The notes beneath the pieces are model-generated. The model saw only the letters and a list, made by a program, of their open reading frames with translations. It was not told the DNA's origin and searched no databases. The translations under genes and the position numbers were made by a program. From Candidatus Woesearchaeota archaeon (GTDB taxonomy: Archaea; Nanobdellota; Nanobdellia; Pacearchaeales; GW2011-AR1): 64,000 nt of DNA. Shown here in pieces: positions 4,625-47,643 of this stretch. Position 1 is the stretch's first letter. Each line of letters opens with the position of its first letter. The stretch is taken from positions 42 through 64,041 of the forward strand of contig CAZYZS010000006.1 in the NCBI GenBank assembly GCA_964651965.1, given 5' to 3'.

Positions 4625-4690
4625 TCTGCTTTATGCAAACGCCCATACAAAGCCTTAGTTATCTGCATTACGCTTAGCTACATTTATTTT

Positions 4691-24552: not shown

Positions 24553-25698
24553 ATGAAAGAAGGAAATCTTAAAGGGCGCGTGATGCTTTATGTTAATCAG
24601 GTACTTAGAACAGCCGGCTTCTCTTTTATTTCTTTATTTATACCTATTTATCTTTTGACTCTTGGATACAGTTTGAATTTCATATTTTTATATACCCTAT
24701 TTTATTATATTTTTGTCTTTGTTTTTTCTATAGTTGCAGTTTATATGGGGAATAAAATTGGATATAGAAGGTTATTCATACTAAATATCTTCGTAGTTAT
24801 TTTTTGGATGTTTTATCTTTCTGTTTTAAAAGATTTTCCGTTATCTATTTATCCCATTTTTTTTATGGGTTTATTGGGGGGGATTGAAGGCGCATTTTTT
24901 TGGACGCCTTTTAATATTCTCTTTGCAAAGTTTGGGAATGAGGGGAGAAGGGGAAGCCAGGTAGGCTTCTTAAGCATCTTTAATCAGCTTAGTTCAATAA
25001 TTGGTCCGGTTATAGGAGCATATCTTGCAGTTACAAGCGGGTTTAGCGAACTAATCTACTTTGCAACTTTTTTCTTTTTCTTATCCCTGCTCCCATTATT
25101 TTTCCTTGAGAATATTAAGCTGAAAACAACAGTTTCTTTAACAGGTCTGAAGAAATTCTACACTTTTCATAAGAGCTTTGCTTATGGTAATGTCTTTCAA
25201 AATATATTCGGGGAGGTACAGGGCATCATCTGGCCGATTTTTATATACCTGATGTTTAATAACAACCTCCTACATGTCGGCTATATTGGAAGTATTATAG
25301 CTGTTGGAACAATCGTCTTCACAGCAATCGTGGGAAAACTCAGCGATAGAATAGATAAACACATTTTGATAAAAATTGGGGGTTTAGCTTTTGCTCTGCT
25401 TTGGGTATTGGTTCTATTTTTTCAGCAGCCGATTTATTTGTACATAATCAGCGCCCTTTTTGGATTTGCAAGCCTCATGATCGCTCTGCCGTTTTCAACT
25501 ATAACTTATAGCAAGGCAGCAAAAGAAGAGGATATAGGGGAGTTTATTGTTTGGACCGAGGCTGCTTCGTTAGTTGGAAGACTGATTTTTATTGCTATAA
25601 TTCTGATTGCCCCTAACAAATTTTCTGCTAGCTTTATAATAGCTTCGTTATCTTGCTTGTACTTTGCAATAGCCAGATTTGAGAAGAAAACTAAGTGA
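24553..25698 (+). CDS. MFS transporter
   Basis: ~10-12 TM; MFS motif-A-like GNKIGYRRLF and GKLSDRIDKH in the two halves. Confidence 0.7.
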   Translation: MKEGNLKGRVMLYVNQVLRTAGFSFISLFIPIYLLTLGYSLNFIFLYTLFYYIFVFVFSIVAVYMGNKIGYRRLFILNIFVVIFWMFYLSVLKDFPLSIYPIFFMGLLGGIEGAFFWTPFNILFAKFGNEGRRGSQVGFLSIFNQLSSIIGPVIGAYLAVTSGFSELIYFATFFFFLSLLPLFFLENIKLKTTVSLTGLKKFYTFHKSFAYGNVFQNIFGEVQGIIWPIFIYLMFNNNLLHVGYIGSIIAVGTIVFTAIVGKLSDRIDKHILIKIGGLAFALLWVLVLFFQQPIYLYIISALFGFASLMIALPFSTITYSKAAKEEDIGEFIVWTEAASLVGRLIFIAIILIAPNKFSASFIIASLSCLYFAIARFEKKTK

Positions 25699-26740
25699 AA
25701 TTAGTTTCTATATATTTCTTTAGTTCTTTCATATTTATTTTATATGCTCTTACAAAAGAATCATCAACATGGCAGTATAAAATGCCCTCATCTTTGGATG
25801 TTTGCACAAATTCGCTTGCAAAAGTTATGCTTTTTGCATCAGGGTCTTCAAATAAAGGCTCTTTTGCTATCCAGGGGATTTCCCCTGTTTTAGTATTGAA
25901 AAGAATTAGACCAGGTTTATAATCTCCACGAACTTCTTTGTTATCCATTTTCTTCTTTGGTTCTCTTCCATTGACAATTACTACTAGGCAATCTCCAAAG
26001 TCTACCATCTCTTTTGGAATGAATCTGCAAGGGGATAATTCTTCTTTGCACCAGTGATAACCTTTTTCTTTTAGGTCAAAAAACGATTTAAGATTCCATG
26101 GCTTTCCCATGTCTTCTGCTTCAACAACTGCAATTGTTTGAAGACTATGCCCGTCTTCCTTTAACTTCCAGGACTCTGTTAAGTTCAGCCTTTTTCCTTT
26201 AGTGGCTATTGGAGAGATTGCCGCTTCTTTAAACCCTCTTATCTTTTGGGATGTCGGACCGAGGATTGGAGGAGTTGCTTTTAGGGTTTCAAGGGTTTTT
26301 CCCTGTGCGTGGCCTAAGTAGATATCAAGCCCGTGCTCGTTTTTATATTTTAAGGCAATTGTAAAATAAATATGTTTTATCTCCTTTTCGTCTGTCCAGA
26401 TATCTGGGTCTTCTAATCCCATTAAAACCTTATCTTTGCCTGCAAGCTTGCTGATTATTTTGTCTATTCCTTTAATTTTCAAATCTGCTACTTTTTTCCA
26501 TTGTAGGCCATTATCGCTTTCAACAATAATTAGCTTGCTTTCATCTGTATTCCCGTAGATTCTGGGATCGTTTTGATTACTCCTTAAGATTTCACGAGCC
26601 AGTCCTTTTACTGGATTATTTGAATTTTTGTCTATTGAAAGAGCCATAACCCTGTGTTCAGCGCTGACTGTTCCGAAAACCGGCTCTTCGTACATTGAAA
26701 CAGCAGAATTAATTTTTTTCCAGCCCATAATAAGATACAT
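25691..26740 (-). CDS. divergent GH130-like beta-propeller protein
   Basis: GLEDPDIW (compare GxEDPR of GH130), repeated beta-strand-rich segments. Weak call. Confidence 0.45.
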   Translation of the reverse strand: MYLIMGWKKINSAVSMYEEPVFGTVSAEHRVMALSIDKNSNNPVKGLAREILRSNQNDPRIYGNTDESKLIIVESDNGLQWKKVADLKIKGIDKIISKLAGKDKVLMGLEDPDIWTDEKEIKHIYFTIALKYKNEHGLDIYLGHAQGKTLETLKATPPILGPTSQKIRGFKEAAISPIATKGKRLNLTESWKLKEDGHSLQTIAVVEAEDMGKPWNLKSFFDLKEKGYHWCKEELSPCRFIPKEMVDFGDCLVVIVNGREPKKKMDNKEVRGDYKPGLILFNTKTGEIPWIAKEPLFEDPDAKSITFASEFVQTSKDEGILYCHVDDSFVRAYKINMKELKKYIETNFT

Positions 26741-28562: not shown

Positions 28563-28820
28563 ATGGGAAAGATAACTACAGGAGGAATTGTTACAACTTC
28601 TATAATCAGCGCGTTCACAATAGCTGCTGCTTTGATATGGAAAGATGTTATAGATGGCGTGATAAAACTTATTTTTCCTGCAGACCAGCTTCTACTCAAG
28701 TTTATTGCAGCTATCTTAGCTACCATTCTGGTTGTTGTATTCATCTATATTATACTAATGGCTGAATCTGAGACTAAAATTGTTTTGAGAAAATTTAAAT
28801 TGGGCAAGAGGAAAAAATGA
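28563..28820 (+). CDS. small two-TM membrane protein with basic tail (85 aa)
   Basis: AAGAGGA SD upstream; two helices; tail RKFKLGKRKK. ATGA overlap with the pfkB-family start; the tail codons AAGAGGAAA are the SD of the next gene. Confidence 0.5.
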   Translation: MGKITTGGIVTTSIISAFTIAAALIWKDVIDGVIKLIFPADQLLLKFIAAILATILVVVFIYIILMAESETKIVLRKFKLGKRKK

Positions 28821-29734
28821 AATTTGATGTTGTAACCTTTGGTTCTGCAGTTAAGGATGTTTTTGTAGTAACTGATTTAGCTGACAGGGGAAAGTTCATT
28901 GCTTATCCTATTGGAGCCAAGATTCTTATTAAAGAGCTAAGATATGACATCGGTGGAGGGGGAACAAACACCGCAGTTGCATTTTCTAGACTGGGGCTTA
29001 AGACCGGATTCATTGGTAAGGTTGGAAAGGACGGGACCGGGTATGAAATTTTAGATATGCTTAAGAGAGAAAATGTGAAATTCCTTGGCAAGATGGAGAA
29101 AAAAGGGCTTACTGGATTTTCTATTATCCTAGACAGCCAGGAGAACGATAGGACGATTTTAACTTATAAAGGCATTAATGATACAATTAGCATGAGAGAC
29201 ATAAAGTTAAGAAAATTAAAAACTAAATGGCTATATCTTTCTTCTTTGCTTGGGGAGAGTCTTGAAACTCAAATTACCCTTGCGAGAGCGTTAAAAAAAC
29301 GCGGCGTTAAAATAGTATTTAATCCGAGTTCTTATCTTACCGAGAGAAAAGAGTTAATAGAGCACTTATTGATGGTTTCTGATATACTCGTTCTGAATAA
29401 AGAAGAGTCGCAAATGCTTACAAGCAGAAGGGATCTGCTTAAGGGGCTGCATGACCTGACTGGCGGGATTGTTGTAATAACCGACAGGGATAAAAAAATT
29501 TCTGCATTTGATGGAGCAAGAAAATATTATTTAGCGCCTAATAAGATAAAAGTTAGAGAAAGGACGGGGGCTGGAGACGCTTTTGCTTCAGGTTTTGTTG
29601 CAGGGCAGATAGTTGGAATGAATATGGAGGAAAGTCTAAAACTGGGGTTAAGGGAGTCTGAATCAGTTATAAAATATTTTGGAGCTAAAAATAACCTTTT
29701 AAGGATAAACCTCCGTGAAGTTTGGAAGGGTTAA
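28817..29734 (+). CDS. PfkB/ribokinase-family sugar (phosphate) kinase
   Basis: GGGGTNTA, C-terminal TGAGDAFASGF. Position just upstream of fba suggests a phosphofructokinase-like role (inference). Confidence 0.85.
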   Translation: MKFDVVTFGSAVKDVFVVTDLADRGKFIAYPIGAKILIKELRYDIGGGGTNTAVAFSRLGLKTGFIGKVGKDGTGYEILDMLKRENVKFLGKMEKKGLTGFSIILDSQENDRTILTYKGINDTISMRDIKLRKLKTKWLYLSSLLGESLETQITLARALKKRGVKIVFNPSSYLTERKELIEHLLMVSDILVLNKEESQMLTSRRDLLKGLHDLTGGIVVITDRDKKISAFDGARKYYLAPNKIKVRERTGAGDAFASGFVAGQIVGMNMEESLKLGLRESESVIKYFGAKNNLLRINLREVWKG

Positions 29735-29782
29735 ATTTATAAAAGGCGTTTTGCTTGATAGTTCATAAAAGAGGAAAAAAGA

Positions 29783-30538
29783 ATGAAGCGAGTCAATTTA
29801 AAAGATATAACGCGCCAAGGCAAAGCAATTTTCTTGGCTTATGACCAGGGCTTAGAGCACGGTCCGAGCGATTTTAACGATAGAAATGTTGATCCTCTGT
29901 ATATAATTGACTTGGCTAAAAGAGGGGGATTTACTTCTCTTGTTCTTCAAAAAGGAATTGTTGAAAAGTATATAGAGGAGATAAGAAAATCCGGTGTGCC
30001 TTTGCTAATGAAGCTCAATGGCAAGACTGATTTGTTTAGGGGAGACCCTATTTCAAGCCAGATATGCACTGTCAAAGAGGCTATTGACTTTGGAGCAAAA
30101 GCAGTAGGGTTTACAATCTATATTGGCAGCCAGCATGAAGGGAAGATGATTGAGCAATTCGAAGCAATTGAAAGAGAGGCTCACGCTAAGGGCCTGCCGG
30201 TTATAGCCTGGATTTATGCAAGAGGTAGCTCAGTAAGAGTAAGGTCGAGCAGCGAACTTATGGCTTATGCCACTAGAACTGGTTTGGAGACTGGAGCAGA
30301 CATTGTCAAGATCAAGTACGATGGGGATGCAAAAGGGCTTAAATGGGCAATAAAATCTGCTGGCAGGACAAAAGTAGTAATCGCTGGTGGGATGAAAAAA
30401 GATGAAGGCCTATTCTTAACCCAAGTTAAAGAGATTATGGATGCAGGAGCAATTGGGCTTGCTGTTGGCAGAAATATATGGCAGCATAAAGATCCTATGT
30501 TGATTACAAGAAAGGTAAAGAAGATGTTATGGGGTTAG
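29783..30538 (+). CDS. fba: class I (archaeal DhnA/FbaB-type) fructose-bisphosphate aldolase
   Basis: 251 aa TIM barrel: FLAYDQGLEHGP, LMKLNGKT, ADIVKIKY (Schiff-base Lys region), VIAGG, AVGRNIWQ. Confidence 0.8.
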   Translation: MKRVNLKDITRQGKAIFLAYDQGLEHGPSDFNDRNVDPLYIIDLAKRGGFTSLVLQKGIVEKYIEEIRKSGVPLLMKLNGKTDLFRGDPISSQICTVKEAIDFGAKAVGFTIYIGSQHEGKMIEQFEAIEREAHAKGLPVIAWIYARGSSVRVRSSSELMAYATRTGLETGADIVKIKYDGDAKGLKWAIKSAGRTKVVIAGGMKKDEGLFLTQVKEIMDAGAIGLAVGRNIWQHKDPMLITRKVKKMLWG

Positions 30539-30539
30539 A

Positions 30540-30764
30540 ATGGAGAACCTCTTCTTGTTAAACTGGAAGAAATTTTTATTATTGGTTCTGTTTTTTATCA
30601 TAACCTCCTTGATATATATAGCTATGAGCTCTTTGAGGGATACAGAAGAATCTGGATTCTTATTATTTGCCTTGATACTTATTCCTGTGTATTTTGCAGT
30701 TGCTATATTCTACTCTTTAGTTTACATTATAATTAGGAAAAGAAAAGGAAAAGAGCCAGAATAG
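30540..30764 (+). CDS. small two-TM hairpin membrane protein with basic tail (74 aa)
   Basis: Starts 1 nt after the fba stop; two helices; tail RKRKGKEPE. Confidence 0.5.
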   Translation: MENLFLLNWKKFLLLVLFFIITSLIYIAMSSLRDTEESGFLLFALILIPVYFAVAIFYSLVYIIIRKRKGKEPE

Positions 30765-30767
30765 AAA

Positions 30768-31403
30768 ATGAACCGAAAATTTATTATGCTTGCCTCTATT
30801 TGCGGTATAATTGCCCCAATACTTTCTTTTGGATTGATAATCCTTTTTGGCTATCTTACTCCAGGTTACAATCCCATTTCAGACTTTATAAGCAGTATTT
30901 GGAGTGTTGGTAGCAGATTTCAATGGGCTTCATTGGCATTCCTTGTTTTGGCGGGAGCCTTATTCATGATTTTTTCCATAGGCCTTTATTTGGCAATTGA
31001 TGAGGATAAATTCTCTAACTACAATTTTATTTTGCTTACTGTATTTTCATTTAGCTTAATATTTTTAGGAATTTTTCCTTGTGAATCTACCTACTGCAAT
31101 GCACAGGGATTCACCCTTCACTTATTTTTCACTATGATCGCATGTGCATCCTTGGGCTTTTCCCCTCTTTTATTATTTTTTGTTACCTATAAAGATAAAA
31201 AATGGAAAAACTTTGAAAAAAATAATCTAGTATTCTTCTTCTCGTCTGTTTTTTTCCTGGCACTCTATGGTCTTTTTTACGATGAATATAAGGGATTTTT
31301 TCAAAGGGCCTATTTTTTTATTTGTTTTTTATGGGTTGAGAGAGTGAGCATAAAATTATTTAAACTATCTATGACTAGTAAAAACATAAAAAAGAGGAAA
31401 TAA
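30768..31403 (+). CDS. DUF998-like polytopic membrane protein
   Basis: 211 aa, ~6 TM, TPGYNPISDFIS motif. The tail KNIKKRK encodes the SD for tpiA. Confidence 0.55.
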   Translation: MNRKFIMLASICGIIAPILSFGLIILFGYLTPGYNPISDFISSIWSVGSRFQWASLAFLVLAGALFMIFSIGLYLAIDEDKFSNYNFILLTVFSFSLIFLGIFPCESTYCNAQGFTLHLFFTMIACASLGFSPLLLFFVTYKDKKWKNFEKNNLVFFFSSVFFLALYGLFYDEYKGFFQRAYFFICFLWVERVSIKLFKLSMTSKNIKKRK

Positions 31404-31408
31404 GGAAG

Positions 31409-32035
31409 ATGAGACCAATAGTTATTGTTAACTTTAAGACTTATCAGCAGGGAAAGGCCGCGGTTACCTTGGCTAAAAAGCTGCAGAAAGTTGATAAGAA
31501 CATTATAGTTGGAGTAGAGGCAACTGATGTTTATGAAATTGTGAAGAAAACGAAATTAAGGGTTTATGCGCAGCATGTAGATTATTTTGAGCCTGGAAGG
31601 TATACCGGATTTATTTTACCAGAAGCTGTCAAGGAAGATGGGGCAGAAGGTACTTTCTTAAATCATTCAGAACACAGATTAAAAAGAAGAGTTATAAGAA
31701 AGACAATAAAAAGATGCAGGCGAGTTGGATTGAAAACAGCTGTTTTTGCAGTTTCGCTTAGGGAAGCAAAGAAAATAAGGAGAATGAAACCAGATTATCT
31801 TATAATTGAGCCTCCTGAGCTTGTTGCAGGGGATATTTCTGTTTCAAAGGCAAAGCCAGAGCTTATTGAAACAATAGCAAGAAAATTAAAATATCCGTTC
31901 TTGGTAGGGGCGGGAATAAAAAACAAAAATGATGTTAAAATTGCAATGAAACTAGGAGCATCTGGAATTGCAGTAAGCTCTGCAATAACAACAGCAAAAA
32001 ATCCTGGAAAAAAATTAAGAGAGCTGATAAAATAG
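31409..32035 (+). CDS. tpiA: triosephosphate isomerase (short archaeal type)
   Basis: IVIVNFKTY, LNHSEHR, IIEPPELV, GAGI; 208 aa. Confidence 0.8.
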   Translation: MRPIVIVNFKTYQQGKAAVTLAKKLQKVDKNIIVGVEATDVYEIVKKTKLRVYAQHVDYFEPGRYTGFILPEAVKEDGAEGTFLNHSEHRLKRRVIRKTIKRCRRVGLKTAVFAVSLREAKKIRRMKPDYLIIEPPELVAGDISVSKAKPELIETIARKLKYPFLVGAGIKNKNDVKIAMKLGASGIAVSSAITTAKNPGKKLRELIK

Positions 32036-32583: not shown

Positions 32584-33492
32584 TTATCTTCTTCTTTCGC
32601 TTTTTGTTCTTGCCACAAAATAAGTGCCAATTAGAATCAGCATGCTGCCAACTAGTTGCAATGCAAAAACTTGTTCATTAAGCCAGACAGCCCCTAGGAC
32701 TAGGGAAATTACAGGAGCGAGTAAAAGAACTGTGGAAGCTTTTGATAAATTGATGTACTTTAATCCCCAGTAGAAAGTCAAGACATAAAAAAACAACAAT
32801 ACTCCTGAGACAATTATATATAGCCATTGCTCAGAGTTCAGAGAAAATAATAGAGAGGTTTTTCCTAGAAGAAAGATTATTGCGAATAGCAACAATGCTC
32901 CAAAAAACATTCTTGAGAATGTAACAACCCAGTTGCTCTCTTTTTCTAGCATTACTTTCTTTGAGATAGTAGTCTCAATTGCCCAGAGGACAGTAGCAGA
33001 TAAAATAAGCAAATCCCCTAATTGCATATCATTCGAGATGTTTGTTAGCTCTATTAAAACTAATCCCGCAAGCATAACTGCCAATGCGATTAGTTGTTTT
33101 CTGGTTATTTTTTCTTTGAGAAATATTATAGCTAGAAGGGTTGCATATATTGGAAGAGTTTTATGAATAAAAGCCGCTCTTCCTGAAGTTGTAAGCTTTA
33201 GTCCTGAAAAGAAAAGCCAGAAAGCAATTCCCCCGCCTATAATCCCTATCAAAATCAAATAGCTCCACGATACTTTTTTGAATTTCTTGGTTTTTCCTGA
33301 AAAATATAAAGAGATAAAAAAGAAAACTATTCCTATGACTAATGCCCTCGTGGCAGTAAGGACTAATGGATCAACTGCTGTAACAAAAAATTTGTTGATG
33401 ACAACTGAAACTCCCGAGATAATTGCAGTCAATAGGATTAATAGAGTGCCTCTTATTTCACCTAAATTCTCTTTTCTTGCCTCTTTTTTCAT
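32584..33492 (-). CDS. EamA/DMT-family transporter
   Basis: 302 aa, ~10 TM, duplicated EamA-like halves. Confidence 0.8.
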   Translation of the reverse strand: MKKEARKENLGEIRGTLLILLTAIISGVSVVINKFFVTAVDPLVLTATRALVIGIVFFFISLYFSGKTKKFKKVSWSYLILIGIIGGGIAFWLFFSGLKLTTSGRAAFIHKTLPIYATLLAIIFLKEKITRKQLIALAVMLAGLVLIELTNISNDMQLGDLLILSATVLWAIETTISKKVMLEKESNWVVTFSRMFFGALLLFAIIFLLGKTSLLFSLNSEQWLYIIVSGVLLFFYVLTFYWGLKYINLSKASTVLLLAPVISLVLGAVWLNEQVFALQLVGSMLILIGTYFVARTKSERRR

Positions 33493-34727: not shown

Positions 34728-34922
34728 CTATGAATCAAAAAACCTCTGTATAAAATTTTCCTTGCATGGTTCGCTAGGCTTTTGTGAGGATGGAAAGCCA
34801 TGTTTTGTCCATTTTCCATCTTGACAAATCCAAGAATCTTCTCCGGTGGCTAATCTTGCAACTGCGAGAGCTATAATAATTAAAATTGCGATAATTATGA
34901 TTATTTTCCATGCTTTTTTCAT
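34728..34922 (-). CDS. small N-terminally anchored secreted protein with 2 Cys (64 aa)
   Basis: MKKAWKIIIIIAILIIIALAVA anchor, then WICQDGKW...EPCKENF. Last gene on the hydrogenase strand. Confidence 0.45.
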   Translation of the reverse strand: MKKAWKIIIIIAILIIIALAVARLATGEDSWICQDGKWTKHGFPSSQKPSEPCKENFIQRFFDS

Positions 34923-34971: not shown

Positions 34972-36264
34972 TTACATCCAATTAATTTTTAAGAAATGCG
35001 TGGCGCAGGACATACATGGGTCATAGGCTCTTATCATTTTTTCTGCTTCGAATGCAATTTCATCTTTGCTTTTCCCTTCTCCTAATAGGAAAGTTACATA
35101 TTTTGCAAGGTCTTTTTGTAGGTGCATTATATTTTGTTGCGTTGGGATGCATAAATCAGCAAAATTAACAATACCTTGGTTGTCAAAAGCGAGATGATAA
35201 TATAAAGTGCCTCTTGGAGCTTCAACAACTCCGATTCCTACCGATTCTCTTGGCTTGACTTTTATGATTTTTTCTGGTTTTATTGTATCTTTAAGCTCAT
35301 TTAGAATAGAAAGAGAGTTGTCTACTTCATGAAGCATCTCAATTGCCTGTGCTGTATTATTGTTGAAAACACAGCTATTTGGAAAAATATCTAAGAACTT
35401 TCCCGCATCCTTCCTCGTTCTTTTGTTTAAATGATGGTGATTCAAGTTCATTCTTGCCAAAGCTCCTACCATGAAGTCCTCTGATTCCCAGGTGAAAGAG
35501 GCGGCAGTTGAGTATGGGAGAACAACTCTTTCTAAATGCAGCCCGTATTTTTCTTCGGGGATATTGGAGCCATAAGCGGTTCTTATAATCCCCTTAAGAT
35601 AGTTATAATCGTCGTTGCATAAGGCAACATAATTAGTTTTTCTTTTGAAAGTTGTCTTATCATCATAAAATACCTTTATTATTTTTAAGATTCTTTCTCT
35701 TGTATCTTCTAGCTTTTTTATTGCCTCTTCCAGTTCTTGCTTTTTTGGGAACTTTGTAAATCCGCCTATAGCCGCATTTGGGGGATGAATTGCCCTGCCT
35801 CCAATTATTGTTGATAAGAAATTGCCAGCATCTTTAATATGGAGAGCATCGTGAATCCACTCTTTTTCCTCTCCTGTAAAGTCAAGAGCAGAATCTTTTC
35901 CTAAAATATCTGGAAGACAGAAAAAATAGAGATGCATTGCATGGTCTCTTAAATGAGAGCTATAAGAGAGAAGATTTCTCAGCTTAAATGTTTGTTCAGT
36001 TACATTTAATCCAAAGGCTTTTTCTATTGCTTCTATTGAACATAAAACATGGGAAGAAGAGCAAGTTCCACAAATTCTCGACATTGTTGTAGGGACAGCC
36101 AGATAATTTTGCCCAAGGGCAGCTGTCCTAAAAAAACGTTTGTTTTCGCTTACTTTTAATTTGCATTTCTCGGCCTTATTGTTCCTTACAATAATATCCA
36201 AGTGAGTATGCCCTTCTATCTTGGAGATGTTTCTTATTGTTAGATCGAAGTCTTGTGAATGCAT
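34972..36264 (-). CDS. [NiFe]-hydrogenase large subunit (small cytoplasmic, group-3-like)
   Basis: 430 aa. N-terminal RICGTCSSSH (RxCGxCxxxH) and C-terminal DPCMSCATH (DPCxxCxxH) followed by the 7-aa tail FLKINWM. Confidence 0.9.
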   Translation of the reverse strand: MHSQDFDLTIRNISKIEGHTHLDIIVRNNKAEKCKLKVSENKRFFRTAALGQNYLAVPTTMSRICGTCSSSHVLCSIEAIEKAFGLNVTEQTFKLRNLLSYSSHLRDHAMHLYFFCLPDILGKDSALDFTGEEKEWIHDALHIKDAGNFLSTIIGGRAIHPPNAAIGGFTKFPKKQELEEAIKKLEDTRERILKIIKVFYDDKTTFKRKTNYVALCNDDYNYLKGIIRTAYGSNIPEEKYGLHLERVVLPYSTAASFTWESEDFMVGALARMNLNHHHLNKRTRKDAGKFLDIFPNSCVFNNNTAQAIEMLHEVDNSLSILNELKDTIKPEKIIKVKPRESVGIGVVEAPRGTLYYHLAFDNQGIVNFADLCIPTQQNIMHLQKDLAKYVTFLLGEGKSKDEIAFEAEKMIRAYDPCMSCATHFLKINWM

Positions 36265-36277
36265 GTTATTTTTTATT

Positions 36278-36541
36278 TCAAATATTCCTCCCGTATATAA
36301 ACCATCCTATGTCTACTAATAAAACGCCAATAACTCCAATAGTATTAGAGAGGATTAATGGAAAACTTTTTATTTCTATTCCATAAAGTACCCACATTAT
36401 TGCCCCAATTGTGAGGATAGAGCAAGTTATTATCGATATATCTTTGGCGGATTTCTTCTTGAAAATCTTATAGGCTTGCGGTAAATTAGCCAAGGCCATT
36501 AAAGTTCCGAATATTGTTGCTAGAGATGAGATAATTGTCAT
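36278..36541 (-). CDS. SemiSWEET / PQ-loop (MtN3) 3-TM transporter
   Basis: 87 aa, three TM, LANLPQAYKIFKKKSAKDISIITCSILTIGAIMWVLYGI matches the bacterial SemiSWEET pattern (PQ motif, basic loop, WxxYG). The start overlaps the small-subunit stop as ATGA. Confidence 0.8.
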   Translation of the reverse strand: MTIISSLATIFGTLMALANLPQAYKIFKKKSAKDISIITCSILTIGAIMWVLYGIEIKSFPLILSNTIGVIGVLLVDIGWFIYGRNI

Positions 36542-37029
36542 TTTAGATATTCCTCCATTTTTTTCATCATATCTTTTTCTTCTACAGGGCAGCCGTTTAT
36601 TTCGTCATCTACCTTTACATAAGTTTTTAATGGTTCTATTGTTGGCTTTTGCCTAAATCTAACTAGCAAGGGCTGGATGCTCCTCTTTTTTGCATCATCA
36701 AATTTATTTCTTTGATTGGATGGATAGCCATTTGCAGCTCCGCTGCCCAATGCCACAAGGAATTTTGCTTTTTGTCTTATTTCCTTTAATTTTTTTATCT
36801 CACTGTCTATCGAGATTGCGCCTTCTACAAATGCAATATCCATTCTGTGAATTTTATCCTCTTTTTTTAATGCCCTGAAATTAACTATTTTTATTTTGCT
36901 CATGTAATCTTCGAACTTAGTGTTTAATGTTTCAATGAAACTTATAGAACAGCCTTCACAGCAAGTAAATGAGAAAAATCCCACCCTTTTCTTCATCCCA
37001 AATAAATCTCTGAAAAAGCTCATTTTCAC
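36538..37029 (-). CDS. [NiFe]-hydrogenase small subunit (proximal-cluster-only, group-3-like)
   Basis: 163 aa: FTCCEGCSISF, VEGAIS, LVALGSGAANG, INGCPV. No Tat signal and no medial/distal cluster domain. Confidence 0.8.
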   Translation of the reverse strand: MKMSFFRDLFGMKKRVGFFSFTCCEGCSISFIETLNTKFEDYMSKIKIVNFRALKKEDKIHRMDIAFVEGAISIDSEIKKLKEIRQKAKFLVALGSGAANGYPSNQRNKFDDAKKRSIQPLLVRFRQKPTIEPLKTYVKVDDEINGCPVEEKDMMKKMEEYLK

Positions 37030-37035
37030 CTATTT

Positions 37036-38235
37036 TTATTTGATTCTCTTTAATTTAATATCTTGTTCTTTGAGTTTAAATATTATTGGGTTTATTATAA
37101 GAATTATTCCTAATACAATAAAAGCATAGCTCAAATTTTTATCTGCTAAAACTCCTATGATTGGCTGGATTATGATTACAATTAAGCTATAGAACATGGA
37201 AATGATTGAAAATACTGTTGCTCTACTGTAAGATTTAATATGCTGATTTTTATAATCTGTAAATAATGGATCTCTTACTTGAAGTAGAATGTTTGAAATA
37301 AACAAGCCAAGAATTGCTAAGTATAAATTAGTAAATAAGGCCATTAAAATAAAAAATATTCCGGGAAAGAAAGATGTAAAGAATGCTGTATTCTTGAATC
37401 CCAAATATTTTTCTATATGTGCTACATTTCTATACAAAAAGAAAAGAAGGATATTTGAGACGGCAAAAATCCATCCAAAAAATTCAATTGGAATACCTGA
37501 TTTCTGGAAATAAGGCTGCCATAGTAAAGAAAGAAAGATAAGAATGCCTGCAAAACTTAACCCCTGATTAAAAGATAATTTTAATAAAGATTTATTAAAC
37601 ATTAACTGATGAAAACTTTCTTTCAATAGACTAAATTTCTTGCCTTCTTTTTTTGATATGCCTGGCTCTTGAAGTGTAAATGCGATAATTAATGCAAGTA
37701 TGTACCCAATCAGATTAATTCCCAGTAAAATCATAAACTGATAATTTAACAGGTCTTTAGCAATGTAACTTGCTAAAGGGGGGATAAAAACAGCCCCGAT
37801 AACCCATGCAGATCTCAAATTTCCTAAATGTTTTTTTGCGGTCTCTTCTTTTTTAATAATTTTTAATGAGTCATAAACCATCGCAGTAATGCAACCTGAA
37901 AATAAAGCCATAGCTATCGCAAAAAACATTATTCCTACAACAAAAGTAAAAAAGTTATGTGCAAACAAATAAATCAGCCCATAAAGGATTAAAGAAAATA
38001 GGCCAAGAATAATTGTTTTTTTCCTTCCGATTATGTCAGAGAGCATTCCTGTTGGTATTTCAAGAAGGATAATCAACAGGGATACTATCGCCCCAAGAAA
38101 AGATATCTGAGCCAGATTCAATCCGCGATAGAAATAAAAGAGGGTTATTACAGCAGTTAAAGCAGATAGATTATATAGAACACTCATCCAAAAAAGTTTT
38201 TTAGGATTTTCCTCAAACTTCCTTAAATCTTTCAT
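37036..38235 (-). CDS. MFS transporter
   Basis: 399 aa, ~12 TM, GMLSDIIGRKKTI motif A. Ends 6 nt upstream of the hydrogenase small-subunit ATG. Confidence 0.7.
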   Translation of the reverse strand: MKDLRKFEENPKKLFWMSVLYNLSALTAVITLFYFYRGLNLAQISFLGAIVSLLIILLEIPTGMLSDIIGRKKTIILGLFSLILYGLIYLFAHNFFTFVVGIMFFAIAMALFSGCITAMVYDSLKIIKKEETAKKHLGNLRSAWVIGAVFIPPLASYIAKDLLNYQFMILLGINLIGYILALIIAFTLQEPGISKKEGKKFSLLKESFHQLMFNKSLLKLSFNQGLSFAGILIFLSLLWQPYFQKSGIPIEFFGWIFAVSNILLFFLYRNVAHIEKYLGFKNTAFFTSFFPGIFFILMALFTNLYLAILGLFISNILLQVRDPLFTDYKNQHIKSYSRATVFSIISMFYSLIVIIIQPIIGVLADKNLSYAFIVLGIILIINPIIFKLKEQDIKLKRIK

Positions 38236-38291: not shown

Positions 38292-39149
38292 CTATTCAAT
38301 CTCAGAAATTATTGACTTATTTATCTGCTTTGCCATTAATATGTCTTTTATAACTGTTAGTTGAATATTTACTTTTTTATTGACAATATCAGAAAGCTCT
38401 GATAAATCTAATTCATCGATGCTTTTGTTCTTTTTGAAAAATTCATCAAGTTCCTTAACAAGCTCTTCTGGATATCTTGCCTGGATTACTATTTCTCCCA
38501 ATGTTGCTACATAGTAGCTTTTATCGAATGAAGAAGTAGATGGGCTAAAACCAACCTTTATGCCTGTTTTTGCATAGAATCTCCAGATATATTTGTCTAA
38601 AGGAGTTTTTCCTATACTTAAAGCGTATGATTTGATACCTTTATTTTTTAATCTTGTCATCATTATTCTTTCTTTATCTGCATACATCAATCCTTCCCAG
38701 CAGTGAGCTCCCTGAAAAGCGTTTATGTTTGGATCGCCTTTTTTGAGATTATCAAACCAATCATCGATTATGCTTTGCCAGAATTTCATCATCTCGCTTA
38801 AAGAATTAAATGTAAAAACAGAAATTTGCCCTTTTATCGAATCAAGATTCCTTGGCTTTGAAATTGGCTGTGTCAGGCTTAAATAGAGATTATCTAATTC
38901 TTTTTTTGATTCTATCACCCAATCTTTATTTATTAGGAATCTTTTATTTTCCTGCAGCAATACATTTTCTTTCTTAAGTTCAAGCACTGCTTTTCTTACA
39001 GCCTGAAATGTAACTGATTTTCCATATCGCTTCTTTATAAGGCTCATTAAATCGATTATCCTTAAGGGATATTCTGCCGAAAGTATTGTAAAAACTAAAT
39101 CTTTTACATTATCTTTATTTCCAAATGGAAGCGATATTCTAAGCGCCAT
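38292..39149 (-). CDS. putative winged-helix transcriptional regulator with C-terminal sensor-like domain
   Basis: N-terminal LVFTILSAEYPLRIIDLMSLIKKRYGKSVTFQAVRKAVLELKKENVLLQ resembles a wHTH. The remainder is unknown. Confidence 0.5.
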   Translation of the reverse strand: MALRISLPFGNKDNVKDLVFTILSAEYPLRIIDLMSLIKKRYGKSVTFQAVRKAVLELKKENVLLQENKRFLINKDWVIESKKELDNLYLSLTQPISKPRNLDSIKGQISVFTFNSLSEMMKFWQSIIDDWFDNLKKGDPNINAFQGAHCWEGLMYADKERIMMTRLKNKGIKSYALSIGKTPLDKYIWRFYAKTGIKVGFSPSTSSFDKSYYVATLGEIVIQARYPEELVKELDEFFKKNKSIDELDLSELSDIVNKKVNIQLTVIKDILMAKQINKSIISEIE

Positions 39150-42453: not shown

Positions 42454-42789
42454 ATGAAAATAGTTAAGAGGCCTTGGGGGCATTTTAATCAGTTTGTCAA
42501 GAATAAAAAATGCACTGTTAAGATACTTGAAATCCGGCCAAAACAAGAGTTGAGTCTGCAGTATCATCGAAAACGCAAAGAAATGTGGTATTTCTTGACA
42601 GATGGATATGTCCAAATAGGCTTGGAAAAAAAGAAAGTTAAAAAAGGAGAGCTAGTTGTTATTAAAAAAAGAAGGGCTCACAGAGTATTTTCTAAAGACA
42701 AGAAAATTGTTTGGCTGGAGATATCTGTTGGGAAGTTTAAAGAAGGAGATGAGGTAAGAATAGAGGATAAATACGGGAGGGCTGCATGA
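42454..42789 (+). CDS. cupin-type mannose-6-phosphate isomerase-like protein
   Basis: KRPWGHFNQF...VKILEIRPKQELSLQYHRKRKEMWYFL matches the type-II PMI cupin core. Confidence 0.7.
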   Translation: MKIVKRPWGHFNQFVKNKKCTVKILEIRPKQELSLQYHRKRKEMWYFLTDGYVQIGLEKKKVKKGELVVIKKRRAHRVFSKDKKIVWLEISVGKFKEGDEVRIEDKYGRAA

Positions 42790-43598
42790 AAGGAGACAAA
42801 ATAGCAATTGATTTAGGGGGAACTCATCTAAGAACAGCTTTAGTAAGAAATAATAAAGTTATAAAATACCTTAGGAAAGACACTCCCAAGGAAAAAAATT
42901 CCCTTGTACGAGAGATAGCTGAGTCTATATCCAAGTTAATGAACGAAGATATTATTGGGATAGGTGTCGCGAGCCCAGGCCCATTAAAAAATGGAGTTAT
43001 CTTAAATCCGCCTAATCTTCCTTTAAAATATTTTAATTTGAAAAGATTCTTGATAAAGAAGTTCAGCGTTCCTGTAGAAATAGAGAATGATGCTAAATGT
43101 GTGGCAATCGCAGAAGCTAAATTAGGATGCAGGAAAAAGCATTTTTTTATTTTAACTTTGGGAACAGGTATTGGAGGGGGGGTAATAATAAACAATGATT
43201 TATATCTTGGATCTGATTATGGGGCCGAGTTAGGAGGGATTGTTGTTGATAAAGGTAGAAGTCTAGAGGATTTGTGGAAAGACCATAGAAGACTGTCTGA
43301 AAAATATTTTGGAAAAGTCATACTAATGACTGACTTATTAAAAATGAAAGATCCAAGAGCTAAACAAATTGTGGCAGACACAACAATGTATCTTGGGCAA
43401 GGGATCGCAAGTTTAATTAATGTTTTTGACCCTGAAATTGTTATTTTATCTGGAGGCGTAAAGGAAAGTGGAAGGAGATTTCTTAAGATGGTTAAGAAGA
43501 ACGTATATCCTTATGTAATGTTGCCAAAAAAGACAAAGATAAAATGGACAAGACTCGACCACCCAGGAGTTTTAGGAGCGAGTTTGTTGATACAATAA
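42786..43598 (+). CDS. ROK-family sugar kinase (glucokinase-like)
   Basis: IAIDLGGTHLRTAL, ENDAKCVAIAE, LTLGTGIGGG. ATGA overlap with the cupin gene. Confidence 0.85.
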   Translation: MKGDKIAIDLGGTHLRTALVRNNKVIKYLRKDTPKEKNSLVREIAESISKLMNEDIIGIGVASPGPLKNGVILNPPNLPLKYFNLKRFLIKKFSVPVEIENDAKCVAIAEAKLGCRKKHFFILTLGTGIGGGVIINNDLYLGSDYGAELGGIVVDKGRSLEDLWKDHRRLSEKYFGKVILMTDLLKMKDPRAKQIVADTTMYLGQGIASLINVFDPEIVILSGGVKESGRRFLKMVKKNVYPYVMLPKKTKIKWTRLDHPGVLGASLLIQ

Positions 43599-43617
43599 AA
43601 AGAGGAAAAAATAGAAG

Positions 43618-44487
43618 ATGAAAAATCACGCTGAAATTAAAAGAGTAAGGGCGCCTGTAAGGATTGATTTTGGCGGAGGAACAACTGATATTTATCCGTT
43701 TACGCATCTTTATGGAGGGGCTGTTTTAAATGCGGCGATTGATAGGTATGTTGTTGGAAGGATAGTAAGGTCCGATAAGGAAGTTGGATTGCAGTATCAT
43801 GCTGCTATTCCTACATCTTCGGGACTAGGGACTTCGGGAGCAATGACTCTTGTATGGCTGGCTTTAATCTCCAAGCTGAAAGAATTTACAAGAGAAGATA
43901 AAATGAGGCTGGCAGAGCATGTTTATGTTCTTGAAAAGACTTTTGGAGGGTGTAATGGAAAACAAGACCAGTATGCCGCTGCAATGGGCGGAATAAACTT
44001 CATGGAATTTCACAACGATAGGGTAAAAGTTACTCCCATAAAACTGCCGCATAAAGTGGTTAGAAAGCTGGAAGACAACTTGGTTTTGGTTTATACAGGA
44101 AAACCGCATTTAGCGGGTAGCTCTAATAAACATGCTATTGATAATTTAGTTAAGGGGAAAAATAATGATAACCTTCTTAGGCTGAAACATATTGCAGAAA
44201 ATATGAAAGAGGCGCTTATTAAAAGAGATTTAGGGAAATTTGCAGAGCTTATGAATAAAGAAACAGAAGAAAGAAAACTTCTAAGCAAGGCAACTATCCC
44301 TGGAAAGATAAGAAGAATCATTAAATCAGGTATAGAGCATGGTGCAGTAGGGGCGAAGGTTTGCGGAAGTGGAGGGGGAGGAAGTATTTTGTTTTATGGA
44401 GATAAAGTAAGATTAAAAGAGAGGTTTGGAAGTAAAGTGATTAATTTTAAGTTTGATTTTGAAGGGTTAAAGGCTATTAAAGACTAA
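43618..44487 (+). CDS. GHMP-family sugar kinase
   Basis: RAPVRIDFGGGTTDI, AIPTSSGLGTSGA (GHMP motif II), KVCGSGGGGS (motif III). Confidence 0.75.
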   Translation: MKNHAEIKRVRAPVRIDFGGGTTDIYPFTHLYGGAVLNAAIDRYVVGRIVRSDKEVGLQYHAAIPTSSGLGTSGAMTLVWLALISKLKEFTREDKMRLAEHVYVLEKTFGGCNGKQDQYAAAMGGINFMEFHNDRVKVTPIKLPHKVVRKLEDNLVLVYTGKPHLAGSSNKHAIDNLVKGKNNDNLLRLKHIAENMKEALIKRDLGKFAELMNKETEERKLLSKATIPGKIRRIIKSGIEHGAVGAKVCGSGGGGSILFYGDKVRLKERFGSKVINFKFDFEGLKAIKD

Positions 44488-44562: not shown

Positions 44563-47500
44563 ATGGCAAAAAAAAAGAGTAATAAAAACATAAAAGAGAA
44601 CATACCTTTTTTTACTAAACCCTTCAAGGAAAAAGGTAAGGGCAAGAAAAGTCTAAGGAAAAAAAGTTCCATCTTCAAGAAGATAGACCAAAAAGAAGAA
44701 GATATAATCGCCGGAGCTTTTAAGAACAAGCTTTCTAAGCCCAAGGCCAAGTCCAAACCAGAAAAAGAGAAAGTTATAGTTGCTCCTTCCAAGCCAAAGA
44801 GCAAGAATAAAAACCTCTATCTGATTATAATCCTAGTGGCTATATTGTTGCTAATTGTATTTTTCTTTCTAATCTACTTGCTTTATCCTTATTTAGAAAG
44901 ACCGAGAGATAGAAATCTTGAAGCAGGAGAGAATGTCGAGACTGCAGTTGTTAGAGCAGACTCTACTTTAGATGTACACCTCAAAGATTTTAATCCTGAT
45001 ACTCTTTTATCTGTGAAATTTATCCTTCTAGGAAATGCAGAATATTACTACGAAACTAGCGGTATAAAACAGGACTATACTTTCTATCCTTCTGACTTTG
45101 GAATAAACAATTTTGATTCGGTAGTTAAAGCAAGCGCGGTTTTCACCTATAAAACCGAGCCAGTTCCTCCTGGAGGCGGAACTACTCCTCCTACTCAAAC
45201 AAAACCTAACTGCACCGATGGAAAAAAGAATGGCGGTGAAACAGGGGTAGATTGCGGAGGGAGTTGCAAGGCATGTAGTCCTCCGGGTGGAGGTGGAGGA
45301 AGCCCAGGGGGTGGAAGCGAAACTCCTTGTACACCTAAAACCTGCGCAGATTATGCTGGAAAGTGCGGGAGTTTTTCTAATGGTTGTCCTGGAGGGACAT
45401 TAACCTGCACGTGCAGCGAGGGATTTTATTGTTATACAGGAGCAGGGGCTTCATCAAGTGTTTGTGTTAATAATTCTTTTAGCTGTGTTGATTCTGATGG
45501 AGGAAAAGATTACTATACCAAAGGAAATGTAACTGTCAATAATTCTAATACGATTATATCTAAAGAAGATACTTGTTTTGGCAGTTTAACTGAGTTTTTT
45601 TGCTATTATAATGGAAGTGTTTTTGAAGCAAGAAACGAGAGCTATAAATGCCCTTACAGATGTAAACTTACAGGAGGAGCATGCGAGAGACTTCTATGTG
45701 AGGCAGATGCCAACTGCACAACTTTAAACCTCCCTAAAATAGAATCATGTACTAATATTCCTGATAGCAATCCTTTTACCTGGGATTATAGGAATGAGTT
45801 CATTAGCACTTGTGTAAGCAAGGAATGTACCTATGGAGACGAAAGCGTAAGCAGCAAATGCATTAACACTAAATGTGGAGCAGAGTGCAACGATGGAGAT
45901 ACTCAAGAATCTGCAAATACCTATTGTTTAAACAACGATCTTTATAGATTTGTTTATGAGTGCAACAGCACATGCAGGCTTTCTAATTTAAGCACTGCAA
46001 ATGATATTCTTTCGGATAATTGTGTGAGAACCTGCAATCCAAGCGGATGCAACTTCACCACTAGAAAATATGTCACTTATAATGCGAGTTCTGATTTATG
46101 CCCAAACAACAGGTGCGTAGAGCCTGCTAACTGCACTACGCCTATTTCATCAGTTTGCGATAAAGATTGCGGAGCAGAGTGCGAAAATGATGATAACTGT
46201 ATAGGTGAAAAAGTGTGTGATAGCAACTGTAATTGTCAGGGATTTGAATGTACCAGCCATGTTAGCTGTGGAGCAGGCAAATACTGCGATTCATCTGGAG
46301 TATGCCAACCTAGATTAAACGAAGGAACAGACTGCGGAGGAGTGGAACATCCTGTCTGGCCAGGGCAGTCTACAGATTATGTTTGTTCTGGGCAATGCAA
46401 GGCAGACTATGATGGAGACGGAAAATACTGCGTAGCACTCGCTTCTTCTTGTACTCATAATGCAGTAACTTATCTTGATGGTTCACGCGCTCCTGATTGT
46501 CTTAGCTCAACTAACGAGAGAAAATGTATGATTGGGATATGGACATCTGGAACAACTTGCGAGGATGCTGACAAGTGCAATGGCATTTCGGAGTGTGAAG
46601 ATGGGGCATGCCAACCAGGCACCTCTCTTATTTGCAATGATAATAACGCATGTAATGGTCTAGAAACTTGCAGTCCTGCTTCTGGATGTGTTGATGGGAT
46701 CGCTCCTAATTGCAATGATTTGGTTGGTTGCACTGAAGATAGCTGCCACCCTCTTTCAGGATGCATGAATCTTCTTAACGATAGCAAATGTGAAGTCTGG
46801 GAGTCTTGCACTTCTCCTGGTGGATGTGTTCAAAGTTCATGTTCTGGTTGCACTGATTGCAATGTATGGAATAAAACTGCCGAACCTTGCGATTATAATA
46901 AATGTCATAATAAATGCAATAAAATAGGAAGCTGCTACTTCTCTGGGAATGTCCTTGGACCTTGCGTTTCTTTAACCACTGCATGCTCTTCGATAACTGC
47001 CTGCGCGGATTATTCACAGGCTGAATGCGAAAATGACCCCTGTGGGAAATCTGATACCGGTTGCATATGGGATGCAGATACTTGCATAGTAAAACCGGTA
47101 TGCGGAAATAATGTTCTAGAAAGAACAGAGGTTTGCGATAACTCCCAATTGGGTGGAAAAACATGTGGGAGTTTCTTTGATCATGCAAGTCCAATACCGG
47201 GCGCGGAAACATTAAGATGTTGCAGTTCTACGAGTCCTCCTAATTGCAGCAGTTTTGACTTTTCCTCCTGCAAAAATAAGACTTATACTTCTTGTAGTGA
47301 TAGCGATGGAGGACTAGATTACTATACTTACGGAAGACTGAGCAGTCTTCAATATACTTTTAATTATGGGGCCGATTGTAGTGGAGCCATAAGGTATGGT
47401 GGTGTAGGATCAGAGATTGGCGGCTATAATGATTATTGTGTTGGCGAAAATACTTTAAGAGAGTATTACTGTGACGCAGATAAATCGCCGCATTATGTGG

Positions 47501-47643
47501 ACTATTCTTGCGGTGCTGGGCACAATCTATGCAATAATAGGCGTGGAGTGTGTGTCGGTGGCTACCTGCCTTCATTGAGCATATGGGAAAGCATAAAGCA
47601 GTTTTTTAGCAACTTATTCCAAATGATCTTGGGTCTATTTTAA
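44563..47643 (+). CDS. giant cysteine-rich type-II-anchored surface protein (1026 aa)
   Basis: Lys-rich ~95-aa N-terminus, a single TM (LYLIIILVAILLLIVFFFLIYLLY), then a ~900-aa ectodomain with ~95 Cys by hand count, Gly/Pro linkers (PPGGGGGSPGGGSETP), the motif NCTDGKKNGGETGVDCGGSCKAC and a repeated C-x-DSDGG-x-DYYT-x-G...EYYC module. AAAGAGGG SD upstream. Confidence 0.85.
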   Translation: MAKKKSNKNIKENIPFFTKPFKEKGKGKKSLRKKSSIFKKIDQKEEDIIAGAFKNKLSKPKAKSKPEKEKVIVAPSKPKSKNKNLYLIIILVAILLLIVFFFLIYLLYPYLERPRDRNLEAGENVETAVVRADSTLDVHLKDFNPDTLLSVKFILLGNAEYYYETSGIKQDYTFYPSDFGINNFDSVVKASAVFTYKTEPVPPGGGTTPPTQTKPNCTDGKKNGGETGVDCGGSCKACSPPGGGGGSPGGGSETPCTPKTCADYAGKCGSFSNGCPGGTLTCTCSEGFYCYTGAGASSSVCVNNSFSCVDSDGGKDYYTKGNVTVNNSNTIISKEDTCFGSLTEFFCYYNGSVFEARNESYKCPYRCKLTGGACERLLCEADANCTTLNLPKIESCTNIPDSNPFTWDYRNEFISTCVSKECTYGDESVSSKCINTKCGAECNDGDTQESANTYCLNNDLYRFVYECNSTCRLSNLSTANDILSDNCVRTCNPSGCNFTTRKYVTYNASSDLCPNNRCVEPANCTTPISSVCDKDCGAECENDDNCIGEKVCDSNCNCQGFECTSHVSCGAGKYCDSSGVCQPRLNEGTDCGGVEHPVWPGQSTDYVCSGQCKADYDGDGKYCVALASSCTHNAVTYLDGSRAPDCLSSTNERKCMIGIWTSGTTCEDADKCNGISECEDGACQPGTSLICNDNNACNGLETCSPASGCVDGIAPNCNDLVGCTEDSCHPLSGCMNLLNDSKCEVWESCTSPGGCVQSSCSGCTDCNVWNKTAEPCDYNKCHNKCNKIGSCYFSGNVLGPCVSLTTACSSITACADYSQAECENDPCGKSDTGCIWDADTCIVKPVCGNNVLERTEVCDNSQLGGKTCGSFFDHASPIPGAETLRCCSSTSPPNCSSFDFSSCKNKTYTSCSDSDGGLDYYTYGRLSSLQYTFNYGADCSGAIRYGGVGSEIGGYNDYCVGENTLREYYCDADKSPHYVDYSCGAGHNLCNNRRGVCVGGYLPSLSIWESIKQFFSNLFQMILGLF

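Follow-up and report, generated by a model that had tools for sequence, protein, structure and literature searches.

What is a gene of the sugar-transporter type doing between the two structural genes of a [NiFe]-hydrogenase? The question is raised by a contig of a Candidatus Woesearchaeota archaeon (CAZYZS010000006.1, assembly GCA_964651965.1), of which we analysed a stretch of 64 kb, hereafter the window; all coordinates are relative to it. Here an MFS transporter gene, the gene of a truncated hydrogenase small subunit, a gene for a SemiSWEET (PQ-loop/MtN3) protein and the large-subunit gene follow one another on the minus strand. Our analysis indicates that the SemiSWEET gene in this putative operon is a real, recurrent and lineage-restricted variant, with no sign of an altered enzyme function, and the literature that we searched held no account of it. 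We read the linkage of SemiSWEET and hydrogenase as co-regulation in a sugar-fermentation neighbourhood rather than as a new three-subunit enzyme, a reading that we hold to be somewhat better than an even call.

A six-frame list of open reading frames (ORFs) placed the four genes exactly at the positions given in Table 1. The initial annotation had described four tightly packed genes on one strand, and its ORFs, domains and junctions are all in place. When the DNA was read directly, the stop of the small-subunit gene and the start of the SemiSWEET gene were found to overlap as ATGA, and 13 nucleotides (nt) were found between the SemiSWEET stop and the large-subunit ATG, both as annotated. The spacer between the MFS and small-subunit genes depends on the start chosen for the latter. 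The 6 nt originally given hold if GTG at 37029 is the start, and 12 nt result from the ATG at 37023, which is the likelier start because relatives begin MSFF... and GGTGA precedes this ATG. In front of the MFS gene, a TATA-like element, TATTTAAA, is followed by AAGAGGAAG and may be regarded as a candidate operon promoter. It is thus plausible that the four genes are read as one transcript starting at this element. A scan for sigma-70 promoters and terminators, which performed at background level and is uninformative for an archaeon, gave no terminator-like site on the minus strand within 34972–38235.

The product of the intervening gene is a SemiSWEET, as first annotated, and scores above the Pfam cut-offs for both relevant models (MtN3_slv, 42.0 bits against 23.7; PQ-loop, 38.2 bits against 22). 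Its best PDB match is 4rng (E 4e-13, 78-residue alignment), with respect to which it conserves the stretch LPQAYKIF with the PQ motif, W50 (Trp50) and N66 (Asn66). The Trp and Asn residues belong to the substrate pocket of SemiSWEETs. The members of its family are bare three-helix units of 85–87 amino acids (aa) that carry no docking extension. A role as nickel transporter was also considered and was ruled out, as the protein has no His and the sugar-pocket residues are kept.

To place the arrangement among related loci, a scan for relatives was made with one genome per species. The scan gave over 560 relatives, of which the best 80 were taken as genome loci. Represented among these loci are Pacearchaeota, Woesearchaeota, Nanoarchaeota, Aenigmatarchaeota, Micrarchaeota and several phyla of the candidate phyla radiation (CPR). 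Of the named genomes, Pacearchaeota RBG_13_36_9 is the closest, with a large subunit that is 92% identical. No SemiSWEET was found by tblastn in the 80 genome loci. The idea drawn from these loci, that the gene is unique to the window contig, was dropped when metagenome loci and the contexts of SemiSWEET homologues gave five linked lineages. A family hidden Markov model, run with all filters off over every locus collected, found the SemiSWEET in five lineages only.

In these five lineages, of about 15 in one Pacearchaeota/Woesearchaeota subclade, the SemiSWEET gene stands upstream of the large-subunit gene. Locus L102 has the same order as the window, small subunit, ATGA overlap, SemiSWEET and large subunit, and its SemiSWEET and large-subunit genes are 1 nt apart. 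The spacer is 28 nt in L085. In L104, an AMP-ligase gene in the opposite orientation stands between the small-subunit and SemiSWEET genes, and the large-subunit gene follows. SemiSWEET and large subunit are kept apart by a methyltransferase gene in L087/L101. Overall, the gap between SemiSWEET and large subunit is 1–28 nt in four of the five linked lineages, which are 64–86% identical to the window in SemiSWEET and 70–76% identical in the large subunit. Conservation of the order, raised as a question by the initial annotation, is therefore partial: the order is identical in L102 and the adjacency is found in five lineages, but both are missing from the relatives that are 92–94% identical and from other clades.

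Unlinked homologues of the SemiSWEET (59–84% identity) stand in unrelated contexts. In a neighbour-joining tree, the only type of tree that was built, they are nested among linked copies. About half of the family members with a readable context are linked to a hydrogenase. Together, the unlinked contexts and the nesting give a pattern that fits an old linkage in the subclade that was lost repeatedly. Beside one unlinked copy, in L103, lies a convergent gene whose protein looks TrmB-like by eye.

The junction into which the SemiSWEET gene is set is itself variable. Over 90 loci, the small- and large-subunit genes are 60 nt apart or less in 63 and more than 250 nt apart in 17, and interruption by unrelated genes is the rule in the window subclade. 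Among the 92–94% identical relatives, an AMP-ligase gene on the opposite strand occupies the junction in L002, L083 and L084, and a 4.6-kb block with nucleotidyltransferase/HEPN-like and other genes occupies it in L082; in L098, L100 and L004 (71–85% identity), the subunit genes are directly adjacent. The AMP-ligase is found at the junction in eight loci altogether (L002, L003, L083, L084, L090, L099, L101 and L104), and its window orthologue stands 3.4 kb away, outside the junction. Since it lies between the subunit genes on the opposite strand, small and large subunits cannot share a transcript in those organisms, and strict co-translation of the subunits is accordingly not required in the clade.

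Other genes come and go at the same place. A family of about 224 aa with no Pfam match is found at the junction in four loci (L082, 5325–5999; L099, 5235–5999; L101, 1737–2410, frameshifted; L092, 546–878), one of which has a large subunit of only 43% identity. The remaining junction genes encode a methyltransferase, cupins (L029, L061), an NYN protein (L010), a Bro-N protein (L076), a 23S-IVP (L039) and toxin-antitoxin-like proteins. In L101, 38 nt of the small-subunit 3' end are directly repeated with one mismatch (1703–1745 and 4639–4680), and the repeat brackets 2.9 kb with a pseudogene of the 224-aa family, the AMP-ligase and the SemiSWEET; this repeat is a rearrangement scar. The small-subunit 3' end itself, "…GGGTATTTrAAATGA" including the ATGA overlap, precedes different genes in the window and L102, in L082 and in L087/L101. 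The best explanation for these data is that the junction in this subclade is a recombination-tolerant slot.

The surroundings of the locus point to sugar catabolism. On one side stand genes for a mannose-6-P-isomerase-type cupin, a ROK kinase and a GHMP kinase, which also flank the hydrogenase in L099, L100, L101 and L104 (ORF clusters 10, 12 and 13). On the opposite, glycolytic side stand genes for a PfkB kinase, an aldolase, DUF998 and triosephosphate isomerase, whose order is also found in L099. An early reading of the locus, that sugar uptake is coupled to fermentative H2 handling, fits these flanking sugar and glycolysis genes; the coupling itself we infer.

Our working model is as follows. 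The two hydrogenase subunits are predicted to form a cytoplasmic heterodimer derived from group 3b and of the hyd2 type described below. Its large subunit would be matured by the adjacent HybD/HycI-type endopeptidase together with a DUF6390/HypC-like accessory protein. In this lineage, the slot between the subunit genes would have been filled by the SemiSWEET gene, which adjoins the large-subunit gene and whose translation would be coupled to that of the small subunit, with the MFS gene added in front. The SemiSWEET most likely acts independently in the membrane as a uniporter for a sugar or another small solute, and would feed the flanking sugar kinase and glycolysis genes. The hydrogenase would dispose of or recover reducing equivalents via a soluble carrier, for which ferredoxin is a guess. 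In this way the cell would switch on the uptake of solutes together with glycolysis and H2-linked redox balancing.

Several observations weigh against this model. The argument for co-transcription is made up of gene spacing and the TATA-like element. With NCBIfam SemiSWEET_2 the SemiSWEET reaches 62.2 where 80 is required, and its family lies below the subfamily cut-offs. No electron partner and no hypA–F gene is found in the 64 kb, and hydrogenase activity is a prediction. The predicted small subunit lacks the third canonical Cys ligand of the proximal cluster. Finally, a tight pair kept in five diverged lineages exceeds simple neutrality, and the functional tie may be closer than co-regulation.

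Of the alternatives, neutral hitch-hiking survives best, though we consider it doubtful. According to this explanation, the SemiSWEET gene landed in a permissive junction and was inherited with it, without any functional relation to H2 metabolism. The interrupted junctions (17 of 90 loci, and the rule in the window subclade), the duplication scar in L101, the closest relatives that lack the SemiSWEET and the nesting of unlinked copies among linked ones would all be expected from it. However, five lineages retain the gene upstream of the large subunit, within 1–28 nt in four of them, as other junction genes turn over. About half of the context-readable family being hydrogenase-linked argues in the same direction, and the sugar-metabolism flanks offer a plausible reason for co-expression.

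The large subunit matches Pfam NiFeSe_Hases at 109.5 bits against a cut-off of 25.8, and its best NCBIfam models are ShyA (266 bits) and HydA (234 bits), whose equivalog cut-offs are 700 and 880; by these scores it is a distant relative of ShyA/HydA and not an equivalog. In the PDB, it is closest to HyhL 5yxy and the SHI alpha subunit 9nez (E 1e-62). All four Ni-Fe Cys are present in RICGTCSSSH and DPCMSCATH, and EGH and PRG are likewise in place. Across 15 homologues, no variation is seen at E17, G18, H19, R63, C65, C68, H72, R351, C417, C420 and H423. After the last motif His, a tail of 7 residues (FLKINWM) is predicted to be cleavable. Both Ni-Fe ligand motifs and the short C-terminal tail had been picked out in the initial annotation, and the ligand set is indeed intact.

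A candidate protease for this tail is encoded next to the large subunit. The 126-aa protein had been called HycI-like, although its sequence is divergent: it scores 21.8 bits with Pfam HycI against a cut-off of 23, 13 of 16 family members match HycI weakly, and a sequence-profile search of the PDB returned HybD at E ~1 only. G7, N8, D14, D55 and H81 are invariant in its family, and we take D14, D55 and H81 to be the equivalents of the HybD metal ligands (an acidic/acidic/His triad). An AlphaFold2 model built with 35 homologues reached a pLDDT (predicted local distance difference test) of 87, and its top four Foldseek matches were all hydrogenase endopeptidases (HybD 1cfz/2kml, Thermococcus kodakarensis HybD 5ija and HycI 2e85), with the highest match probability that the program gives in each case. 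The model thus confirmed the HybD/HycI endopeptidase fold. Its gene stands beside the large-subunit gene in 76 of the 89 loci.

The small subunit matches Pfam Oxidored_q6 at 70 bits, and its best NCBIfam model is HydD (positions 5–152 of 261). It aligns to residues 3–147 of the SHI delta subunit of P. furiosus, which is 261 aa long (E 1e-19). Because the alignment is limited to this part, the domain of the medial and distal clusters is absent, and the protein as predicted retains only the domain of the proximal Fe-S cluster. No Tat or membrane-targeting features were found in it. In a ligand table of 66 homologues, most of which are 151–183 aa long, the window clade shows the pattern C-C-E-G-C (TCCEGC), then G-S-G-A instead of GxCA, and GCP. 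The window protein has exactly four Cys, with an extra Cys23 and a Gly in place of the canonical third Cys. These four Cys suggest that an Fe-S cluster is kept with shifted ligation. Tandem Cys-Cys ligation, which the window protein recalls, is also found in NuoB. The other clades differ: Micrarchaeota have C-C-E-D-S/N, with the second Cys lost and the third kept, and many CPR small subunits have C-D-E-G-C, with Asp for the first Cys. In the same table, each clade variant retains at least four Cys/Asp candidate ligands.

We looked for partners of this heterodimer throughout the window. Regular-expression scans of the 64 kb and a Pfam scan of 30 neighbouring proteins found no ferredoxin-type, 2Fe-2S or HypA–F motifs, and no beta (Fe-S) or gamma (FAD/NAD, 2Fe-2S) subunits were among the Pfam-scanned neighbours. 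A tblastn search of the window with Micrarchaeota FNR-like, DUF6390 and thioredoxin-like proteins gave no match. The absence of an adjacent partner-subunit gene, claimed early on, thus extends to the whole 64 kb. In Micrarchaeota, a 234-aa FNR-like FAD/NAD-binding protein is encoded near the hydrogenase in 11 loci (among them L033, 6686–7390 on the minus strand, L025, L042 and L060), accompanied by SufS/SufC/IscU and thioredoxin/DsbA-like genes; the window has no FNR-like gene. It is possible that this protein is the diaphorase partner in the Micrarchaeota clade.

These features bear on the proposal, very improbable in our view, that the locus encodes a sensor of H2, or else a hydrogenase-like protein that has degenerated and lost catalysis. 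The lack of the medial and distal clusters and of the canonical third proximal Cys would suit such a protein, as would the lack of an electron acceptor and hyp genes in the window. On the other hand, the Ni-Fe ligands, EGH and PRG are invariant across the family, a putatively cleavable tail and a protease of HybD/HycI fold are conserved (76 of 89 loci), no small-subunit variant falls below four candidate ligands, and no kinase or regulator is conserved beside the module. To our knowledge, the regulatory hydrogenases of group 2b have neither the C-terminal extension nor the protease and come with an associated kinase or regulator. The H2-sensing module offered as one reading in the initial annotation is contradicted by the tail and the dedicated protease.

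Least likely of all is a SemiSWEET that serves as a dedicated hydrogenase partner, either tethering the heterodimer to the membrane or coupling solute flux to redox state: the ATGA coupling with the 13-nt gap, the like arrangement in L102, the presence of the pair in as many as five lineages and the lack of any other partner encoded nearby speak for it, and it would, if true, explain a SemiSWEET–large spacing of 1–28 nt amid junction turnover, but the pair is absent from the 92–94% identical relatives and from some 85 further loci with this type of enzyme, the bare 85–87-aa unit lacks a docking extension and keeps its PQ, Trp and Asn transport residues, a methyltransferase gene splits the pair in L087/L101, and neither Tat nor membrane-targeting features are seen in the small subunit. 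The membrane anchor proposed at the outset is likewise unsupported, given the relatives without SemiSWEET and the bare three-helix unit.

Table 1. Features of the window around the hydrogenase locus (coordinates relative to the window).
Feature	Coordinates	Strand	Remarks
PfkB kinase, DeoC/LacD-type aldolase, DUF998, triosephosphate isomerase	28817..32035	+	Pfam; glycolytic flank, opposite side
DUF6390-related accessory protein, 181 aa	32038..32583	+	last ~45 aa resemble HypC fold
EamA/DMT-family transporter	32584..33492	-	Pfam EamA, 171 bits
HybD/HycI-type maturation endopeptidase, 126 aa	33543..33923	+	convergent with large subunit; divergent sequence
Single-pass membrane protein, 64 aa, two Cys	34728..34922	-	49 nt downstream of large subunit; no Pfam match
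[NiFe]-hydrogenase large subunit, 430 aa, 3b-related	34972..36264	-	NiFeSe_Hases
SemiSWEET (PQ-loop/MtN3), 87 aa	36278..36541	-	between small- and large-subunit genes
Truncated [NiFe]-hydrogenase small subunit	36538..37029	-	163 aa from GTG; likelier 161 aa from ATG 37023
MFS transporter, 399 aa	37036..38235	-	first gene of putative four-gene transcript
TATA-like element TATTTAAA	38273..38280	-	then AAGAGGAAG; 38–45 nt before MFS ATG, within 56-nt spacer
AMP-dependent ligase, 651 aa	40421..42376	+	Pfam AMP-binding, 140 bits
Mannose-6-P-isomerase-type cupin, ROK kinase, GHMP kinase	42454..44487	+	Pfam

The MFS gene that leads the putative operon belongs to the window alone. The protein matches Pfam MFS_1 at 88 bits, and NCBIfam gives weak matches of the efflux type. 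Pfam and NCBIfam returned no Sugar_tr or sugar-porter family match, and it is therefore not of the sugar-porter type. A tblastn search of about 100 related loci found no counterpart in any other locus. The leading MFS gene of the initial annotation is thus in place, but only on this contig. Directly upstream of it lies a 285-aa ORF (38292–39149, minus strand) with no Pfam match and no homologue found in related loci.

A second gene had been annotated as HypC-like. The 181-aa protein scores 27.4 bits with HupF_HypC against a cut-off of 28.5, and the HypC-like stretch is limited to residues 134–180. It lacks the N-terminal Cys expected at the start of the ~80-aa HypC OB-fold. In hhalign, the protein matched a DUF6390 cluster at high confidence (E 5e-13). 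The early assignment is therefore right for the C-terminal part, and the whole is a short relative of DUF6390 without the N-terminal Cys. In the Pacearchaeota genome of L009, the homologue (13160–13825, minus strand) has a canonical MCYAIPG HypC domain fused to its N-terminus, and this fusion ties the DUF6390-like family to Ni-Fe cofactor insertion. The 181-aa protein is thus probably maturation-related and not a HypC. The two related clusters of such DUF6390-like/HypC-like genes, taken together, cover 37 of 89 loci.

Other neighbours were recorded as well. An EamA/DMT gene stands near the hydrogenase in 28 of 89 loci across DPANN and CPR, a wider spread than that of the SemiSWEET link. Homologues of the 64-aa membrane protein (58–83% identity, tblastn) are encoded adjacently in L083 and L085 and nearby in L082, L002 and L084. 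Large ORFs without a Pfam match lie at 44563–47643 (plus), 47677–48474 (plus), 52571–54199 (plus), 54196–55359 (minus) and 25691–26740 (minus); one of them encodes a 1026-aa Cys-rich protein, and they adjoin a cluster with family-4 glycosyltransferases. tRNA and Rfam scans of the window gave no matches.

What, then, does the locus add? It establishes no new class of hydrogenase and no new role for SemiSWEETs. Ultra-small lineages of both archaea and bacteria have a hyd2-like type of enzyme in common, and with it a conserved protease and an accessory gene of the DUF6390-like kind. In one archaeal subclade, the structural genes need neither adjoin nor form one transcription unit. There, the recurrent position of a SemiSWEET beside the large subunit, in a sugar-catabolism neighbourhood, points to fermentative H2 metabolism and to a hypothesis of co-expression.

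How does the locus compare with known systems? The SemiSWEETs of Thermodesulfovibrio yellowstonii (4rng) and Leptospira biflexa (4qnc) share with the window protein the three-helix PQ-loop unit, the PQ motif and the Trp/Asn pocket. The window protein differs in falling under the NCBIfam subfamily cut-off (62 against 80), and its gene differs in its place between hydrogenase structural genes. A full-text literature search found no published description of a SemiSWEET in this position, in line with the statement of the initial annotation that known hydrogenase operons carry no such gene between the subunits.

With respect to the enzyme, the small subunit resembles HoxY of group 3d and the NuoB-like proteins of group 4 and complex I, which are Oxidored_q6 proteins of ~150–190 aa with only the proximal cluster; the 3d chains 5xf9_C and 7t2r_E were weak matches in the PDB search. 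However, HoxY and NuoB-like systems pass electrons to defined partners (HoxFU or membrane modules), and none of these is encoded at the window locus. In contrast to the regulatory hydrogenases of group 2b, the window enzyme has the tail and the protease, and no kinase or regulator is conserved as its neighbour. Group 3b, represented by P. furiosus SHI (9nez/9e15) and T. kodakarensis HyhL (5yxy), gives the best match for both subunits and has the same Ni-Fe motifs and the short tail. The window differs from it in a ShyA score of 266 against 700, in a small subunit that lacks the C-terminal ~110 aa bearing the medial and distal clusters, and in the absence of beta and gamma subunits, hence of an NAD(P)H or sulfur-reductase module in the 64 kb.

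The closest known system is hyd2 of CPR bacteria, which has a 3b-related large subunit, a small subunit truncated to ~164 aa on average, no co-located beta or gamma subunits and a hypC-like family nearby (Jaffe et al. 2020, BMC Biol 18:69, PMC7304191); a literature search found no later work on hyd2. The window shares all four of these features, and it is by such gene features, rather than by placement in a labelled tree, that the predicted enzyme matches hyd2. The minimal two-subunit hydrogenase that the initial annotation singled out is thus a type already described. Its conserved core, a small subunit of ~150–180 aa, a large subunit and a convergent protease, was found by tblastn and ORF clustering in about 90 DPANN and CPR loci. 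Among them, Azambacteria (L046) and Sungbacteria (L073), RIFCSPLOWO2 genomes from the set of Jaffe et al., have the same small/large/protease core with large subunits 48–49% identical to that of the window. Compared with hyd2 of CPR, the window enzyme is archaeal and Pacearchaeota-like, the Cys pattern of the proximal cluster differs in its clade, and its structural genes are split by a SemiSWEET gene with an MFS gene in front.

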